Origin: a virus
Lineage: Duplodnaviria > Heunggongvirae > Uroviricota > Caudoviricetes
Length of the DNA stretch: 8,078 bases
IMG/VR virus record: IMGVR_UViG_2563366974_000015
Strand: one strand, 5' to 3'
In this document: positions 1 to 8,078 of the stretch, in pieces
Position numbering within the stretch: position 1 is the first letter of the stretch
How the letters are laid out: each line of letters begins with the position of its first letter
The notes under the pieces: generated by a model
What the model was told of the DNA's origin: nothing
Databases searched by the model: none
The model's input: the letters and a program-made list of their open reading frames with translations, nothing else
Program-made: the position numbers and the translations under genes

Positions 1-2301
1 GATAAGGTGTGGACCTATAACCGCAGTAATGTGGTGATGCCGGATGATGGCGCGCCGTTCCGCTACAGCTTCAGCGCCCTGAAGGACCGCCATAATGCCG
101 TTGAGGTGAACTGGATTGACCCGAACAACGGCTGGGAGACGGCGACAGAGCTTGTTGAAGATACGCAGGCCATTGCCCGTTACGGTCGTAATGTCACGAA
201 GATGGATGCCTTTGGTTGTACCAGTCGGGGGCAGGCACACCGAGCCGGGCTGTGGCTGATTAAAACGGAACTGCTGGAAACGCAGACCGTGGATTTCAGC
301 GTGGGCGCAGAAGGGCTTCGCCATGTGCCGGGCGATGTTATTGAAATCTGCGATGATGACTATGCCGGTATCAGCATCGGTGGTCGCGTGCTGGCGGTGA
401 ACAGCCAGACCCGGACGCTGACGCTCGACCGTGAAATCACGCTGCCATCCTCCGGCACCACGCTGATAAGCCTGGTTGACGGTGAGGGTAATCCGGTCAG
501 CGTGGAGGTCCAGTCCGTCACCGACGGCGTGAAGGTGAAAGTGAGCCGTGTTCCTGACGGCGTTGCTGAATACAGCGTGTGGGGGCTGAAGCTGCCGACG
601 CTGCGCCAGCGCCTGTTCCGCTGCGTGAGTATCCGTGAGAACGACGACGGCACGTATGCCATCACTGCCGTGCAGCATGTACCGGAGAAAGAGGCCATCG
701 TGGATAACGGGGCGCACTTTGACGGCGACCAGAGCGGCACGGTGAATGGTGTCACGCCGCCAGCGGTGCAGCACCTGACCGCCGAAGTCACCGCAGACAG
801 CGGGGAATATCAGGTGCTGGCGCGATGGGACACGCCGAAAGTGGTGAAGGGCGTGAGCTTCCTGCTTCGCCTTACCGTGGCAGCGGACGACGGCAGTGAG
901 CGGCTGGTCAGCATGGCCCGGACGACGGAAACCACATACCGCTTCAGGCAACTGGCGCTGGGGCGTTACACGCTGACGGTCCGGGCGGTAAATGCGTGGG
1001 GGCTGCAGGGCGATCCGGCATCGGTATCGTTCCGGATTGCGGCACCGGCAGCGCCGTCTCGTATTGAACTGATACCAGGGTATTTTCAGATAACCGCGGT
1101 CCCACATCTTGCGGTTTATGACCCGACGGTGCAGTTTGAGTTCTGGTTCTCGGAAAAACGGATTACGGATATCAGGCAGGTTGAAACCAGAGCCCGCTAT
1201 CTTGGCACGGCGCTGTACTGGATAGCCGCCAGTATCAATATCAAGCCGGGTCATGATTATTACTTTTACGTTCGCAGCGTGAACACCGTTGGCAAATCGG
1301 CATTCGTGGAGGCTGTTGGTCGGGCGAGCGATGATGCGGAAGGTTACCTGGATTTTTTCAAAGGCCAGATAACCGAATCCCATCTTGGCAAGGAGCTGCT
1401 GGAAAAAGTCGAGCTGACGGAGGATAACGCCAGCAAACTGGAGGAGTTTTCGAAAGAGTGGAAGGACGCCAGTGATAAGTGGAATGCCATGTGGGGCGTC
1501 AAAATTGAACAGACCAAAGACGGCAAACATTATGTCGCGGGTATTGGCCTCAGCATGGAGGACACGGAGGAAGGCAAACTGAGCCAGTTCCTGGTTGCCG
1601 CTAACCGTATCGCGTTTATTGATCCGTCTAATGGCAACACAAGACCAATGTTTGTTGGTCAGGGCGATCAGATATTCATGAACGACGTGTTCCTGAAACG
1701 CCTGACGGCTCCGACCATTACCAGCGGCGGTAATCCTCCGGCATTTTCCCTGACACCGGATGGGCGGCTGACGGCGAAAAATGCCGATATCAGCGGTAAC
1801 GTGAATGCGAACTCCGGGACGCTCAACAACGTCACGATTAACGAGAACTGTCGGGTTCTGGGAAAACTGTCCGCGAACCAGATTGAAGGCGATCTCGTTA
1901 AAACAGTGGGCAAAGCTTTCCCCCGGGACTCCCGTGCACCGGAACGGTGGCCATCAGGGACCATTACCGTCAGGGTTTATGACGATCAGCCGTTTGACCG
2001 GCAGATTGTTATTCCTGCAGTGGCATTCAGCGGCGCTAAACATGAGAGAGAGCATACTGATATTTACTCCTCATGCCGTCTGATAGTGCGGAAAAACGGT
2101 GCTGAAATTTATAACCGTACCGCGCTGGATAATACGCTGATTTACAGTGGCGTTATTGATATGCCTGCCGGTCACGGTCACATGACGCTGGAGTTTTCGG
2201 TGTCAGCATGGCTGGTAAATGACTGGTATCCCACAGCAAGTATCAGCGATTTGCTGGTTGTGGTGATGAAGAAAGCCACCGCAGGCATCAGTATCAGCTG
2301 A
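1..2301 (+). CDS. J: Host specificity protein J (tail tip / central fibre), C-terminal ~767 codons; 5' end lies upstream of the window
   Basis: Frame 1 is open from nt 1 (the ORF track starts at an internal GTG at 7) to TGA 2299-2301. The translation has a fibronectin-III-like stretch ([23 protein letters not shown]) and a lambda-J-like C-terminus ([32 protein letters not shown]). It sits immediately upstream of lom and stf as in lambda. Recognised from memory, no search run. Confidence 0.88.
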
Positions 2302-2368: not shown

Positions 2369-2968
2369 ATGCGTAAAGTTTGTGCAGCCATTTTGTCCGC
2401 AGCCATTTGTCTGGCCGTATCCGGTGCGCCTGCATGGGCGTCTGAACATCAGTCCACGCTGAGCGCGGGGTATCTTCATGCCTCGACGAACGTCCCCGGC
2501 AGTGATGATCTGAACGGGATTAACGTGAAATACCGTTATGAGTTTACGGACACACTGGGGCTGGTGACGTCATTCAGCTATGCAGGAGACAAGAATCGCC
2601 AGCTGACCCGTTACAGCGATACCCGCTGGCATGAAGATTCCGTTCGTAACCGCTGGTTCAGCGTAATGGCGGGGCCGTCTGTGCGCGTGAATGAATGGTT
2701 CAGCGCGTATGCGATGGCGGGTGTAGCTTACAGCCGTGTGTCGACTTTCTCCGGGGATTATCTTCGCGTAACTGACAACAAGGGGAAAAAGCACGATGTG
2801 CTGACCGGAAGTGATGACGGTCGCCACAGCAACACGTCTCTGGCGTGGGGGGCTGGCGTGCAGTTTAACCCGACCGAATCCGTGGCCATTGATATTGCTT
2901 ATGAAGGCTCCGGCAGTGGCGACTGGCGCACTGACGGTTTCATCGTGGGTGTCGGTTATAAGTTCTGA
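2369..2968 (+). CDS. lom: Lom / Ail-family outer-membrane beta-barrel protein (prophage moron)
   Basis: 199-aa ORF with a signal-peptide-like N-terminus (MRKVCAAILSAAICLAVSGAPAWA). Shine-Dalgarno GAGAGG at 2358-2363, 5 nt before the ATG. The C-terminus VAIDIAYEGSGSGDWRTDGFIVGVGYKF matches the conserved end of lambda Lom as I recall it, and the gene is in the lambda position between J and stf. Confidence 0.88.
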   Translation: MRKVCAAILSAAICLAVSGAPAWASEHQSTLSAGYLHASTNVPGSDDLNGINVKYRYEFTDTLGLVTSFSYAGDKNRQLTRYSDTRWHEDSVRNRWFSVMAGPSVRVNEWFSAYAMAGVAYSRVSTFSGDYLRVTDNKGKKHDVLTGSDDGRHSNTSLAWGAGVQFNPTESVAIDIAYEGSGSGDWRTDGFIVGVGYKF

Positions 2969-3022: not shown

Positions 3023-3032
3023 TGGAGTGGAT

Positions 3033-4619
3033 ATGGCAGCAGTAAAAATCTCAGGTGTGCTGAAAGATGGTGCGGGAAAACCAATACAGAACTGCACTAT
3101 TCAACTGAAGGCAAAGCGTAACAGCACCACGGTACTGGTGAACACGGTGGCCTCTGAAAATCCGGATGAAGCCGGGCGTTACAGCATGGATGTTGAGTAT
3201 GGTCAGTACAGCGTCACCCTGCTGGTTGAAGGTTTTCCGCCTTCACATGCCGGGACCATTACCGTCTATGAAGGTTCCAGACCAGGTACGCTGAATGATT
3301 TTCTCGGTGCCATGACGGAAGATGATGTCATGCCGGAGGCATTGCGTCGTTTTGAGGCAATGGTGGAAGAAGCGGCACGCAACGCCGAAGCCGCCTCTCA
3401 GAGCGCAGCAGCGGCAAAGAAATCCGAAACTGCAGCGGCATCATCGAAGAACGCGGCGAAAACCTCAGAAACAAATGCAGCTAACAGCGCACAGGCGGCA
3501 GCGTCCTCGCAGACTGCATCGGCAAACTCCGCGACAGCAGCCAAAAAATCAGAAACCAACGCGAAAAATAGCGAGACAGCCGCAAAGACGAGCGAAACCA
3601 ACGCAAAGTCCAGCCAGACGGCAGCGAAAACCAGCGAAACGAATGCCAAAGCCAGTGAAACTGCGGCAAAAAACAGCCAGGTTGCAGCAGCCCAAAGCGA
3701 GAGCGCGGCAGCCGGTTCTGTGACTTTAGCAGCTGGATCAGCAACTGCTGCGGCTAACAGCCAGAAAGCTGCGAAGACGAGTGAAACTAACGCAAAGTCC
3801 AGCCAGACGGCAGCGAAGACCAGCGAAACGAATGCCAAAGCCAGCGAAACTGCGGCGAAAAACAGTCAGGATGCAGCAGCCCAAAGCGAGAGTGCTGCAG
3901 CCGGTTCTGCAAGCGCGGCGGCTGCTTCTGCCACTGCATCAGCCAACAGTCAAAAAGCAGCAAAAACCAGTGAAACCAACGCAAAGGTGAGCGAAACAGC
4001 GGCTGCGAACTCAGCGAAAGCATCGGCAGCAAGCCAGACGGCAGCTAAAGCAAGCGAAGATGCAGCCAGAGAGTACGCAAGCCAGGCTGCGGAGCCGTAT
4101 AAATATGTCTTACAGCCGCTGCCTGATGTGTGGATACCATTTAACGATTCACTGGATATGATTACGGGCTTTTTGCCATCATATAAAAAGATTGTTATTG
4201 GTGACGACGAAATAACGATGCCTGGCGACAAGATTGTTAAGTTTAAACGTGCATCGAAAGCAACCTATATTAACAAATCTGGTGTGCTGACAGAGGCTGC
4301 CATTGATGAGCCACGATTTGAACGTGATGGCCTGCTTATTGAGGGGCAAAGAACTAATCTTCTGCTTAATTCAACAAATCCATCTAAATGGAATAAGTCA
4401 GGCAATCTGGAACTCACAGAAATATCCACGGATTCTTTTAATTTTACTTATGGCAGATTTACTGTACAAGATTCGCTTATTGGTACGAGAAAAGCGATTA
4501 ACATCGTCAGGCTGTCTTCGAGTACAGGGGGGGATGTTACTTGTGATGAAGAAAAGGAGGTCACTATATGCTGTGGAATAAAAAGTGAAGAAGATAATAG
4601 GGGCGGTTGTATTTTATAA
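3033..4619 (+). CDS. stf: Side tail fibre protein Stf: lambda-like N-terminal attachment domain plus fibre repeats; C-terminal part appears truncated or disrupted
   Basis: ATG 3033 is preceded by GGAG at 3024-3027; the ORF track begins at an in-frame GTG at 3027. The N-terminus MAAVKISGVLKDGAGKPIQNCTIQLKAKRNSTTVLVNTVASENPDEAGRYSMDVEYGQYSV closely matches lambda Stf as remembered. The central region is Ala/Ser/Thr-rich with SETNAK-type repeats. The ORF ends at TAA 4617-4619, but the same frame reopens after a second stop (TAG 4632-4634). Confidence 0.8.
   Translation: MAAVKISGVLKDGAGKPIQNCTIQLKAKRNSTTVLVNTVASENPDEAGRYSMDVEYGQYSVTLLVEGFPPSHAGTITVYEGSRPGTLNDFLGAMTEDDVMPEALRRFEAMVEEAARNAEAASQSAAAAKKSETAAASSKNAAKTSETNAANSAQAAASSQTASANSATAAKKSETNAKNSETAAKTSETNAKSSQTAAKTSETNAKASETAAKNSQVAAAQSESAAAGSVTLAAGSATAAANSQKAAKTSETNAKSSQTAAKTSETNAKASETAAKNSQDAAAQSESAAAGSASAAAASATASANSQKAAKTSETNAKVSETAAANSAKASAASQTAAKASEDAAREYASQAAEPYKYVLQPLPDVWIPFNDSLDMITGFLPSYKKIVIGDDEITMPGDKIVKFKRASKATYINKSGVLTEAAIDEPRFERDGLLIEGQRTNLLLNSTNPSKWNKSGNLELTEISTDSFNFTYGRFTVQDSLIGTRKAINIVRLSSSTGGDVTCDEEKEVTICCGIKSEEDNRGGCIL
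3582..3909 (+). repeat. In-frame tandem direct repeat inside stf (two 139-bp copies, 189-bp period)
   Basis: Copy 1 (3582-3720) and copy 2 (3771-3909) align base for base with about ten mismatches. Both encode AAKTSETNAKSSQTAAKTSETNAKASETAAKNSQ.AAAQSESAAAGS. Shorter SETNAK-type units recur from about 3400 to 4070. Confidence 0.85.
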
Positions 4620-4805
4620 GACCATGATGGTTAGGAGGTCAGGTTTTCAGTAGGTACTGCACGCATTAACTCAACAATTGTAATTGTTAGCAATAGAAGT
4701 GATGCAGGCCGTGTTATAGCAAAGTCTGTTAAAGATGATGTAACTGGCTGGATATTTTTTGAGGCTACAATAAATGCACATAAAACAGAAAACACGGTTG
4801 GTGGG

Positions 4806-5411
4806 ATGGTTCAGTACGCTCCTGTAAAAGGTTCAGGTACAGCATCTGGAGACTATCTGGATATCGCAACTCCACAAGTGGAAGGTGGATCAAGTGCTTC
4901 GTCATTTATTGTAACTGATATAACTGCAAGCACTCGCGCAAGCGATATGGTGACAGTCCCAATCAAGAATAACCTTTATAATCTTCCTTTTACGGTTCTT
5001 TGTGAGGTACATAAGAACTGGTATAAAACGCCAAATGCAGCACCGCGTGTTTTTGATACCGGCGGTCATCAAACCGGAGCGGCTATTATTCTTGGCTTCG
5101 GTCGTTCAACAGATTACGACGGATTTCCTTATTGTGATATAGGTTTGGCTAACAGACGGGTAAACGAAAACGCATCGCTTGAAAAAATGGTTATGGGGAT
5201 GCGTGTAAAGTCAGATCAGTCTACGTGCTCAGTAAGTAACGGGCGTATATCCAGCGAAAAGAAAGCCACATGGTCCTATATTCAGAACTCCGCAATTATC
5301 CGTATTGGAGGCCAGACTACAGCCGGGTTGCGTCATTTATTTGGTCATGTCAGGAATTTCAGAATATGGCACAAGGCATTGACTGATGCTCAGATGGGGG
5401 AGTCAATCTAA
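4806..5411 (+). CDS. LamG/concanavalin-A-like domain protein; probably the detached C-terminal receptor-binding part of the tail fibre
   Basis: 201-aa ORF from ATG 4806, but the same frame is stop-free back to 4635 with no canonical start codon in that stretch, and it is the stf frame. The C-terminal signature IRIGGQTTAGLRHLFGHVRNFRIWHKALTDAQM is typical of LamG-like jelly-roll lectin domains. The ribosome-binding site at 4806 is weak (GGTTGGTGGG directly abutting the ATG). Low-GC region. Confidence 0.5.
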   Translation: MVQYAPVKGSGTASGDYLDIATPQVEGGSSASSFIVTDITASTRASDMVTVPIKNNLYNLPFTVLCEVHKNWYKTPNAAPRVFDTGGHQTGAAIILGFGRSTDYDGFPYCDIGLANRRVNENASLEKMVMGMRVKSDQSTCSVSNGRISSEKKATWSYIQNSAIIRIGGQTTAGLRHLFGHVRNFRIWHKALTDAQMGESI

Positions 5412-5692
5412 TGAAAGATTTAACACTCAAATTTGCAGACAGGGCCGACTTTTCGGCCTTTATGGATAGCATTGGCTATTATGATGACGAGTCGATGCAG
5501 GATGATATTCTTATTGACGTGATAGGTAACGTGTACAAAGAAACCGGAGAACTGACTGAAGATGGCGAACCGGTATGTGTTAAGGAAGATGGATATTTTG
5601 TAAACGTGCGCATCATTAATGATGCAAAAAAATCGTTAATATTCGATGAATACGCGGTTGTAGTTGAACATCAACTTCGTGGCTGGATGTGA
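5411..5692 (+). CDS. Hypothetical small acidic protein (93 aa); possible tip-specific assembly factor
   Basis: The start overlaps the upstream stop by one base (TAATG at 5409-5413), suggesting translational coupling. Acidic composition (many D/E). No family recognised. Confidence 0.55.
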   Translation: MKDLTLKFADRADFSAFMDSIGYYDDESMQDDILIDVIGNVYKETGELTEDGEPVCVKEDGYFVNVRIINDAKKSLIFDEYAVVVEHQLRGWM

Positions 5693-5701
5693 GGGAGACA
5701 A

Positions 5702-6406
5702 ATGGCTACATCGACAGTAATTCCAGGAGACATCACCACGTTAAAGGGAGATGTCAGTAAAGCCAAGGAAGATATTTCCTCAATTAACGGAAAAGTATCA
5801 ACGCTTCAGGCTGATATGACCAGTGCAAAGCAGGATATCAGCACCAGATACACAAAAACTGAAGTTGATAATAAGCTGAAAAACAAACTGGAAGTGAACG
5901 CTCTGGAAAGCGGTCGTTATGGTGGAGATTTTTACCCGTTGACTGGCCGTGAAGCGTTTTATTTGTGGGGATTGGGCACGACTACAGCGGCGGCAAACCT
6001 TTATCTTAATCCTGACCCCGCAATTTCGTCTGTGCTGCGGTCAACATCGTCTATCCGCTATAAACATTCAGTAGAGACAATAGATTCAGAGCACGCCGAT
6101 CTCATTTTCAGGATGCGCCCTGTGTGGTACAGGTCACAATGCGAAAATGACAGGCGTGACTGGGGATTCTACGGATTGATTGCCGAGGAAGTAGGAGAAA
6201 TTGCCCCTCAGTTTGTACACTGGCGACCAGCTAACGAAGATGATGCACCGGAAGCTATTTCCAGCAATGGCCTTGTTGCCGAAGGTGTAATGTACGAACG
6301 TCTGGTTGTTCCACTGATTCACCATATCCAGAAGCTGACTGAAAGAGTTGATGAACTTGAGTCAGAATTAAAGTTGTTATCCGTTTCCCGAAGCGATATC
6401 GGATAA
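5702..6406 (+). CDS. Short tail-fibre-like protein: N-terminal coiled-coil segment plus C-terminal intramolecular chaperone (peptidase S74-like) domain
   Basis: Shine-Dalgarno GAGGGAG at 5691-5697 precedes ATG 5702. Candidate catalytic Ser-x-x-Arg-x-Lys motif SSIRYK (residues 116-121, nt 6047-6064), followed by WGFYGLIAEEVGEIAPQFVHW and GLVAEGVMYERLVVPLIHHIQKLTERVDELESEL, which match the conserved blocks of self-cleaving C-terminal chaperone domains of phage fibres and spikes (endosialidase / T5 L-shaped fibre type). The N-terminal region has heptad-like spacing. Confidence 0.72.
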   Translation: MATSTVIPGDITTLKGDVSKAKEDISSINGKVSTLQADMTSAKQDISTRYTKTEVDNKLKNKLEVNALESGRYGGDFYPLTGREAFYLWGLGTTTAAANLYLNPDPAISSVLRSTSSIRYKHSVETIDSEHADLIFRMRPVWYRSQCENDRRDWGFYGLIAEEVGEIAPQFVHWRPANEDDAPEAISSNGLVAEGVMYERLVVPLIHHIQKLTERVDELESELKLLSVSRSDIG

Positions 6407-6416
6407 AGGAGGAGTA

Positions 6417-6710
6417 ATGGATATAACACCTTTCCTTCATGCGCTTTGTGCTGTGGCTGCGCAGCTACTGATTGGTCTTTTTACCGGGAACTGGGCTTAC
6501 GGGGCGATAGCTGGTTGTACGTTCTTCATTGCGCGTGAACACACCCAGGCAGAATATCGCTGGATTGAAATGTTCGGGCATGGCAAGCGAATGAATATGC
6601 CGTGGTGGGGCGGTTTTGATCCGCGCGCGTGGGATGTGGCAAGCCTGATGGATTTTGCTGTGCCGGTGGTGGCGTGTCTGCTGGTCTGGCTGTTGGTTAA
6701 TCGTGGGTGA
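6417..6710 (+). CDS. Hypothetical small inner-membrane protein (97 aa, 2-3 predicted transmembrane segments)
   Basis: Strong Shine-Dalgarno AGGAGGAG at 6407-6414 before ATG 6417. Hydrophobic stretches FLHALCAVAAQLLIGLFTGNWAYGAIAGCTFFIA and LMDFAVPVVACLLVWLLV flank a charged loop. GC content is higher than in the upstream cassette. Confidence 0.55.
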   Translation: MDITPFLHALCAVAAQLLIGLFTGNWAYGAIAGCTFFIAREHTQAEYRWIEMFGHGKRMNMPWWGGFDPRAWDVASLMDFAVPVVACLLVWLLVNRG

Positions 6711-6720
6711 AAAAAGGTGA

Positions 6721-6840
6721 GCTGTATATGCAACGGAGGAAGAAACCTCGTTGCTGGAAGCCTGGAAGAAGTATCGGGTGTTGCTGAACCGTGTTGATAC
6801 GTCAACTGCACAGGATATTGAATGGCCAGCACTGCCGTAG
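6721..6840 (+). pseudogene. tfa: 3' remnant of the tail fibre assembly gene tfa (last ~39 codons, no start codon)
   Basis: The frame opens just after TGA 6718-6720 and reads [39 protein letters not shown], ending at TAG 6838-6840. This matches the conserved C-terminal end of lambda-type Tfa proteins as I recall it. No upstream coding sequence or start codon is present. Confidence 0.7.
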
Positions 6841-6937
6841 GGTAAAACATATAAATTCTATAATTAGATGTATCTTTCCATTTACGGCAAGGAAGGGGGC
6901 TTGGAAGACGTAAAGCATCTCACACCGAGATTATTTT

Positions 6938-7528
6938 TTATATGTCAGGTGTCTGAAGTTTTGCTTTGGCTCTTAAAATGGTTTGCCGCGAGGTTTTGAA
7001 TTCCCGGGCAATGGCACTTATACTTACACCTGACTTAATTCGTTCGAATACCACCTGTTTCTGTTCTTCATTTAACACAGGTGGTCGACCAAAACGTTTC
7101 CCTGCGCCGCTGGCTCTTACTATCCCGGAATGAGTGCGTTCAAGTAAAAGGTCTCGTTCAAATTCAGCGACTGCTGAAATTACGTGCATCATCATTTTTC
7201 CTGTTGGACTGGTCAGGTCAATGCCCCCCAATGCTAAGCAATGCACTCTGATACCTGTTTCGGTCAGTTGTTCCACTGTTTTCCTGATATCCATTGCATT
7301 ACAACCAAGGCGATCCAGTTTTGTCACAATCAATTGATCACCACATTTCAGGCGAGCAAGCAACCGGTTAAAACCAGGACGCTCACTGGTTGCTGCTGAG
7401 CCGCTAATGTGTTCTTCGATTATTTGCTGAGGTTTGATTTTAAAACCTGCACTTTCGATTTCCCGGCGTTGATTTTCGGTGGTCTGATCCAGCGTTGATA
7501 TCCGACAGTAAGCAAAAATTCGAGACAT
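6938..7528 (-). CDS. pin: Serine recombinase of the DNA-invertase/resolvase family (Pin-type, as found beside tail-fibre genes in Rac/Qin prophages)
   Basis: 196-aa ORF with N-terminal catalytic-serine motif [13 protein letters not shown], the KLDRLG motif and a C-terminal helix-turn-helix ([19 protein letters not shown]). Length and sequence match my recollection of PinR/PinQ. It is convergent with the fibre genes and adjacent to the tfa remnant. Confidence 0.88.
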
Positions 7529-7844
7529 AGTGAGACTCTATACGAAATTGGTGTTCATATCATAATGCATCTCAGAAAATAATTTTGATTATTTTTGTGC
7601 ATATTTGTATGTACACGTTCGAAAATAAACGAATGCGTATGCAACCCCGTAACTTTGGTGAGACCCAAAATCGATTTTGTGAAAAATGGCTTTAACTCGG
7701 TTTGTTTTTCGAGTTCCGGGCGGACTCAAGGAAGAAGAATAGTGTTGCGTGTTATTTTAACCAGATTTCAAGTTGTTTGGTCGTGGAAAAGTGGAGCAAA
7801 ATGTTGTTAAAGTGGAAAAATGATAAAAAAGTAAGTTTATTATA

Positions 7845-8078
7845 TTACATTTTACCATTTAAATTTTGGTTGTCTTTAAGAACTGATATCGCTGTTTGTA
7901 ATAATTCTTTGTTATCCAGCCATGACTTTTTCTTTATGTTTCCTTCAATGTAATCAAGCAATGTTCTGGTATTGATAGGTCTTCCCTGTTTTGCTACTTC
8001 CACGACAGCATCTCCCAGGATAATTCTGACTTCAGGAAGCTGCGCAGGGAACCACTTTAGGGTGTCTTTTGATTTCAT
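7845..8078 (-). CDS. ynaE: YnaE/YdfK-family prophage protein (function unknown; cold-shock-associated in E. coli K-12)
   Basis: 77-aa ORF MKSKDTLKWFPAQLPEVRIILGDAVVEVAKQGRPINTRTLLDYIEGNIKKKSWLDNKELLQTAISVLKDNQNLNGKM, essentially the YnaE/YdfK sequence as remembered. It lies next to pin as in Rac and Qin. The start codon is at the window edge, so upstream signals cannot be seen. Confidence 0.75.
   Translation of the reverse strand: MKSKDTLKWFPAQLPEVRIILGDAVVEVAKQGRPINTRTLLDYIEGNIKKKSWLDNKELLQTAISVLKDNQNLNGKM

Follow-up and report, generated by a model that had tools for sequence, protein, structure and literature searches.

Why should a recombinase gene be kept beside the tail-fibre genes of a prophage that offers it nothing to invert? 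The question is raised by pin, a gene for a small serine recombinase in a stretch of 8,078 nucleotides (the window, IMG/VR record IMGVR_UViG_2563366974_000015) that forms the right arm of a lambdoid prophage. About half of the complete E. coli genomes carry this gene, K-12 twice, and it is annotated everywhere as a 'DNA invertase', in PHROG as in the other databases; this label is the foundation of an anti-phage mechanism published in 2025 (PMC12529663). Neither the gene nor its lack of an adjoining invertible segment is new, and the latter was also noted in PMC12529663. An earlier note on this DNA described a Pin-type invertase that was either an orphan kept from an ancestral shufflon or an enzyme acting on cryptic or distant sites. 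We consider it quite likely instead that pin is the tnpR gene of a Tn3-family mini-transposon of ~834 bp without transposase (IR-res-tnpR-IR, 6895-7728), and that it was never a tail-fibre shufflon invertase, in which case no adjoining invertible segment or hix-type site is to be expected.

The window protein is composed of a Resolvase domain (PF00239, 1.5e-35) and an HTH_7 domain, and is two residues off PinR of the Rac prophage and four off PinQ of the Qin prophage of K-12. The layout, in which tfa and pin converge and ydfK/ynaE lies upstream of pin in the same orientation, is identical in the window, Rac and Qin. The window is distinguished from the K-12 loci by the substitutions R140S and Q115H in the protein, and by a tfa gene that a replaced fibre module has cut back to its 3' end, the sole tfa portion common to Rac/Qin-type loci. 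The serine at codon 140 (window 7111) is private to the window, all 84 of the other prophage copies examined having arginine. The best genome match of the window is E. coli S88 / APEC O1 (98%), and the S88 prophage adjoins prfC. A block of 1134 nt, comprising the tfa 3' end, pin and its upstream spacer, is found at a coverage of at least 80% in 2672 of 5426 complete E. coli genomes, mostly with 99% identity or more. A search of IMG/VR for diverse relatives brought up nothing but loci 98-99% identical. The order ydfK-pin-tfa-(variable fibre genes)-stf-lom-J was colinear in each of the 80 IMG/VR loci, none of which showed an inversion, and pin thus comes as a rule without an invertible segment.

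The window itself bears this out. All coding regions from stf to pin are on the plus strand, as both the open reading frame list and the S88 annotation show, and the longest inverted repeats in the window (14-29 nt, 70-93% complementary) are scattered, with none flanking a segment near pin. The AAACC-NN-GGTTT core, with up to two mismatches allowed, is matched four times in the window against 4.0 expected, nowhere near pin. On coding direction, on the lack of an inverted duplicate and on the lack of this core, the earlier note was correct. We then used a half-site position weight matrix, for which gix, cix and pix were read from Mu, P1 and e14 and hix was added; as a control it picked out the two known sites, and nothing else, in e14, in P1 and in Mu. 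True crossover sites scored 24-31 bits, and 24-29 bits with each left out in turn. In contrast, the best 26-bp candidate in the window had 8.8 bits (best of shuffled sequences, 8.2 +/- 3.0), the best in the 46.4-kb E. coli S88 prophage also had 8.8 bits (shuffles, 11.3 +/- 2.4), and 32 kb of phage Turner, whose Pin is 99% identical, contained nothing above chance. In phage P1 (L003 6545-6575) cixL overlaps the cin stop codon (CAATCCTAAACCTTGGTTTAAGAGAA), and a candidate relic of such a site across the pin stop codon, recognized by eye, proved to be the right inverted repeat of a transposon. The invertible segment abuts the 3' end of the invertase gene in P1 and the 5' end in Mu and e14; gene orientation alone is therefore no argument against an invertase.

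The family relationships of the protein point elsewhere. It shares 38% identity with PinE and 35% each with Cin and Gin, short of the high mutual identity typical of Hin/Gin/Cin/Pin invertases (79% between PinE and Gin). Its closest relatives, 78-83% identical, are the TnpR resolvases of Tn3-family transposons, and the designation 'Pin-type invertase' is not supported. Raw scores place the protein slightly closer to Gin (106 bits) than to gamma-delta resolvase (82 bits), so that our use of 'resolvase' is founded on synteny and site architecture rather than on an assay. Thousands of homologues at 76-84% identity turned up among the 5.8 billion proteins searched, encoded on plasmids and chromosomes of E. 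coli, Salmonella, Klebsiella, Providencia, Yersinia, Hafnia, Pectobacterium and Shewanella. In all five homologue clusters that we looked up (78-83% identical, from E. coli plasmids, Shewanella, Hafnia, Pectobacterium and Klebsiella), tnpR lies 160 bp from a divergent DDE_Tnp_Tn3 transposase gene of 994 aa. The pairing was seen in 14 of the 17 places listed, the transposase being absent or truncated in the other three. On the NCBIfam transpos_Tn3 equivalog, with its cut-off of 500, this transposase reaches 1193 bits.

The autonomous element is an unnamed transposon of 3815 bp with perfect 38-bp GGGG...TAAG terminal repeats (GGGGTCCGCTTGGAAAACGGAAAATATCCCACGCTAAG) and the organization tnpA-res-tnpR, carried on plasmids of enterobacteria, Shewanella and Vibrio. 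Shewanella baltica has three identical copies, two of which are bordered by 5-bp target duplications. In E. coli the complete transposon was found in 57 of the 5426 genomes. Its tnpA-tnpR spacer contains three conserved dyads of TGTCCGAAA-type half-sites together with a TATAAT box, which is a classical res arrangement; these half-sites resemble those of gamma-delta res. A smaller form also exists. The mini-element on plasmid pTB-nb2, 852 bp of IR-res-tnpR-IR with no tnpA, is found in 142 plasmids.

A decayed counterpart of such a mini-element surrounds pin (Table 1). Positions 3097-3808 of the transposon align with 7608-6899 of the window (82% over 712 nt, blastn), a match that takes in 82 nt of proximal res, the whole of tnpR and the right inverted repeat (IRR), and that stops 7 nt from the end of the transposon. 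Significant blastn homology on the other side ends at window 7608. The region homologous to the three-dyad res lies upstream of the gene, as in the transposon, and has decayed unevenly, subsite III being the best preserved and subsite I the least; it is recognizable as a relic and very probably not functional.

Table 1. Coordinates of the genes, and of the parts of the relic element, in the window
Feature	Position	Strand	Remarks
J	7-2301		lambdoid prophage right arm, first in window order
lom	2369-2968		second in window order
stf	from 3027		third in window order
ORF between stf and pin	3027-4619	+	
ORF between stf and pin	4806-5411	+	
ORF between stf and pin	5411-5692	+	low-GC replacement fibre module
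ORF between stf and pin	5702-6406	+	low-GC replacement fibre module; 234 aa, Peptidase_S74
ORF between stf and pin	6417-6710	+	low-GC replacement fibre module; 97-aa membrane protein
tfa 3' remnant	6730-6840	+	last ~110 nt; partial tfa pseudogene in S88 annotation; outside the element
AGGAA, right copy of 5-bp target-site duplication	6890-6894		directly outside IRR terminus
Decayed IRR of Tn3-family element	6895-6929	+	GGGG-GCTTGGAAGACGTAAAGCATCTCACACCGAG against transposon IR GGGGTCCGCTTGGAAAACGGAAAATATCCCACGCTAAG; 27/38, one 3-nt gap
pin (tnpR-type small serine recombinase gene; PinR/PinQ orthologue)	6938-7528	-	intact ORF, 196 aa
Cys76 codon TGT	7301-7303	-	aligns with catalytic Arg71 of Tn3/gamma-delta resolvase
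res subsite III-like dyad	7539-7557	-	16/19 identical to transposon site; well preserved
TATGAT	7559-7564	-	aligns with conserved TATAAT (-10-like) in transposon tnpR promoter region; putative function
res subsite II relic	7570-7601	-	21/32 identical; CCG and CGG cores of both half-sites mutated
res subsite I (crossover site) equivalent	7616-7641	-	11/26 identical; essentially lost
Decayed left inverted repeat (IRL)	7690-7728	-	TGAGTCCGCCCGGAACTCGAAAAACAAACCGAGTTAAAG; 24/38 against transposon IR, 26/38 against plasmid mini-element IRL
AGGAA, left copy of 5-bp target-site duplication	7729-7733		directly outside IRL terminus
ydfK/ynaE-type cold-shock gene	7845-8078	-	outside the element

The two terminal relics are the best matches to the inverted repeat in an unbiased scan of the window, although individually they are only modestly above chance (z about 2.2 and 3.4). 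The IRL of the plasmid mini-element aligns with window 7682-7717 at a local score of 32, compared with 18.6 +/- 2.0 in shuffles. A matching 5-mer at the spacing of the duplication was found at 17 of 7228 window positions (0.24%), and the chance expectation of such a 5-bp repeat is roughly 0.2-2%. Beyond window 7608 no homology to tnpA was detected (score 18 against 18.3 +/- 2.1 in shuffles); a remnant of the tnpA 5' end suggested by a MAFFT alignment was rejected, because its score was not significant against shuffles. The element is non-autonomous, without a transposase gene. A second version of the spacer upstream of pin (L060, L050 and L082; equivalent to window 7529-7844) is 88-91% identical, and its res half-sites are nearer to the transposon consensus than those of the window, Rac or Qin version.

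We propose that the tfa-ydfK spacer of an ancestral lambdoid prophage received an element of ~834 bp by transposition, with duplication of the AGGAA target, and that the element would then have spread across E. coli prophages within the near-invariant tfa3'-pin-ydfK block. The 5426 E. coli genomes, IMG/VR and the GTDB representatives yielded no empty site (tfa-AGGAA-ydfK lacking the element), so that the insertion event itself is something that we infer. Two empty-site matches in GTDB were in unrelated taxa and due to chance. The element now appears to be immobile and without a substrate in cis, because both inverted repeats have decayed, the cores of res subsites I and II have been lost and there is no second res; the last point follows from the TGTCCGAAA-type half-sites, which are not enriched in the window. 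As there is neither a hix-type site, a second res, an intact subsite I nor an enrichment of half-sites, any activity of the protein must be in trans. The pin frame itself has stayed intact under purifying selection, weaker than that on transposon tnpR. Of the idea of an orphan kept from an ancestral shufflon, the orphan stands, since nothing local can be inverted, and the shufflon is not supported: a gene within a decayed mini-transposon bordered by a target duplication would have arrived beside tfa by transposition and not by the loss of an inversion system.

The locus can be set beside several known systems. It resembles the TnpR-res modules of Tn3 and gamma-delta in the identity of its protein to the TnpR of the unnamed transposon, in its homologous proximal res, with half-sites of the gamma-delta type, in its 38-bp inverted repeats and in its 5-bp duplication. 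In contrast to an intact Tn3-family module, it lacks tnpA, subsites I and II and both inverted repeats are decayed, Arg71 is replaced by Cys, and the element is fixed in a prophage. With Hin, Gin, Cin and PinE the protein shares the small serine recombinase fold, the C-terminal HTH, the position of its gene beside tail-fibre genes and a literature-reported action in trans on e14, whereas its low identity to them, the lack of crossover sites and of an invertible segment, the sequence of the recognition helix and its ancestry set it apart. TIMEs and mobile insertion cassettes (PMC4133298, PMC13367494) likewise have Tn3-type inverted repeats without a transposase and are presumably mobilized in trans. 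However, the short TIMEs contain no genes, whereas the elements described here carry res and tnpR (834-852 bp), and the window copy is decayed. In the literature searched, the coverage of which is incomplete, we found neither a description of this transposon anatomy nor a paper that derives pinR or pinQ from the Tn3 family or points out the change from Arg71 to Cys. A preprint on Salmonella Senftenberg uses the name 'pinR' only as an annotation label.

When the window protein is aligned with the transposon TnpRs, the invertases and gamma-delta resolvase, the motif KLDRLGR is seen to have become KLDRLGC. Besides all 84 prophage copies, the diverged allele L110 and both PinR and PinQ of K-12 have the Cys; all transposon copies, the invertases and gamma-delta resolvase have Arg at this position. 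The catalytic set (Y6, R8, S10, D36, R68 and R71 in Tn3 numbering) is therefore incomplete in the window protein, which retains Y7, R9, S11 and R73, has Glu for D36 as do the transposon TnpRs, and has Cys76 for R71. From this we infer a loss of catalytic efficiency. R71 belongs to a set of six residues in Tn3 resolvase at which mutation leads to a loss of recombination, cleavage being at least ~1000-fold slower (PMC2794168).

The reading frame has nevertheless been maintained. It is intact in all 84 prophage copies, among which 15 of the segregating sites are synonymous and five are non-synonymous. Comparison with transposon tnpR gives a dN/dS of 0.14-0.19, and comparison of the two prophage alleles one of 0.38; the values for transposon copies compared with one another are 0.03-0.08. 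By these measures the constraint on pin has eased several-fold yet persists. The second prophage allele (L110 3165-3755, E. coli KSC64) is shared at 99% identity or more by 134 genomes. Compared with the window it is 89.5% identical in the coding sequence and 84% in the protein, with non-coding flanks that are 97-100% identical, and it keeps Cys76. There are also chimeric alleles (L102 5001-5591; P0003 and P0005-P0008), one of them in the same prfC-side prophage context, that have a transposon-type N-terminal part in which Arg76 is restored and a prophage-type C-terminal part, a pattern suggestive of gene conversion, with plasmid transposon copies and the prophage relic as partners.

What does the protein do at present? 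Our best estimate is that it is a retained DNA-binding or weakly active protein of transposon origin, which probably acts through DNA binding or a weak activity in trans and not through classical resolution. The rival with the most in its favour, and still rather doubtful, is that it is an active invertase in trans that directly inverts hix/pix-type segments elsewhere, for example the e14 P segment. This would be compatible with a transposon origin, as it bears on present function alone. Kirigo et al. (PMC12529663) reported that over-produced K-12 PinQ left 88% of the e14 P segment inverted, that deletion of pinQ lowered inversion and T2 survival, that PinR behaved likewise, and that the effect of PinQ required stfP, stfE and e14. 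The window protein is nearly identical to PinR and PinQ, and the suggestion of action on distant sites thereby gains published support. If the inversion of e14 P by PinQ is direct, Cys76 does not abolish catalysis. However, the residue at the Arg71 position argues against such activity, as does the C-terminal DNA-binding region, which is near-identical to that of the transposon TnpRs, with their TGTCCGAAA-type dyads, and unlike that of PinE, Gin or Cin. The proposed target is also scarce, e14 P with pinE (at a coverage of at least 80%) being found in 170 genomes, as against 2672 with the pin block. In the published experiments, deletion of pinE locked the P segment although pinQ and pinR remained, and the end point of inversion was about 49% for PinE and 83-88% for PinQ (PMC12529663), values that we find easier to reconcile with selection or an indirect effect than with simple equilibration. 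The data of PMC12529663 include neither catalytic mutants nor in vitro assays. Direct catalysis by PinQ or PinR at e14 is thus questionable, given Cys76 and the Tn3-type ancestry.

Slightly less probable still is a domesticated DNA-binding protein that has largely lost catalysis, and that may repress itself at the relic subsite III and promoter, or bind the res of incoming Tn3-family transposons and plasmids. TnpR of Tn3 represses both tnpA and tnpR, which provides a precedent. Purifying selection has persisted in spite of Cys76, and the HTH region, subsite III and the -10 region are the best-conserved parts. On the other hand, subsite II, a contributor to repression in Tn3, has decayed here, and the full transposon, as an incoming target, is in few E. 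coli genomes (57 of the 5426).

Improbable in our estimation is a relic without function, carried along in a prophage block that has spread recently. The decay of the inverted repeats and res and the loss of the catalytic Arg would suit it, as would a dN/dS in the prophage lineage 4-5 times that of the transposon copies; furthermore, the block is 97-100% identical across loci, which leaves little time for decay. Against this, not one of the 84 copies is disrupted, 15 of 20 polymorphisms are synonymous, an allele with a dS of 0.22 keeps both Cys76 and the reading frame, and deletion phenotypes have been published (PMC12529663). The reading of pin as a Hin/Gin/Cin/Pin-family invertase orphaned by the loss of an ancestral tail-fibre shufflon is very improbable, for although the gene adjoins tfa and stf, has its 3' end toward the fibre genes like cin in P1, and is labelled 'DNA invertase', its product is only 35-38% identical to a family that reaches 79% within itself, it is enclosed by transposon inverted repeats, res and a target duplication, there is no relic of a crossover site at its 3' end or in stf, and an inverted arrangement was seen in none of the 80 loci.

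Returning to the retained protein of transposon origin, we tentatively raise the possibility, itself rather uncertain, that a transposon resolvase exapted by prophages in about half of E. coli has, once its transposase, res crossover site and catalytic Arg71 were gone, been selected for a new role in trans, by a mechanism unlike classical resolution or Fis-dependent inversion. Such a protein might be a regulator or low-activity recombinase that biases the orientation of fibre segments, or one that interferes with incoming Tn3-type elements or phages. A decayed tnpR with Cys for the catalytic Arg would account for the missing invertible segment. It cautions against the inference of inversion systems from the annotation 'DNA invertase', and it makes the published claim of inversion in trans a sharply testable question.

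The neighbourhood of the element has features of its own. The distal fibre module (4100-6710) has a G+C content of 40-47% and comprises the C-terminal part of stf, a 93-aa ORF, the 234-aa protein, whose Peptidase_S74 domain is an intramolecular-chaperone domain, and the 97-aa membrane protein. This module stands in for the usual stf tip and for most of tfa, of which the last ~110 nt are left, and is mosaic between related loci, with identities of 66-100%. Within stf, a patch of ~360 nt (4454-4814) accounts for 108 of the 164 differences between the window and E. coli S88, without indels. The changes are spread evenly over the codon positions (30/40/40), with 78 transversions and 32 transitions, and two in-frame stops break up stf, leaving the frames 3027-4619 and 4806-5411. 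In complete E. coli genomes the patch is matched at 76% at most, whereas its flanks are 98-100% identical to many genomes; its pattern is not that of normal coding divergence. Finally, the sole Rfam result for the window is a partial match to IS009 (RF02111) at 6708-6806 on the plus strand, which overlaps the tfa 3' remnant and is below the gathering score (69 bits against 117, E = 1.8e-14).
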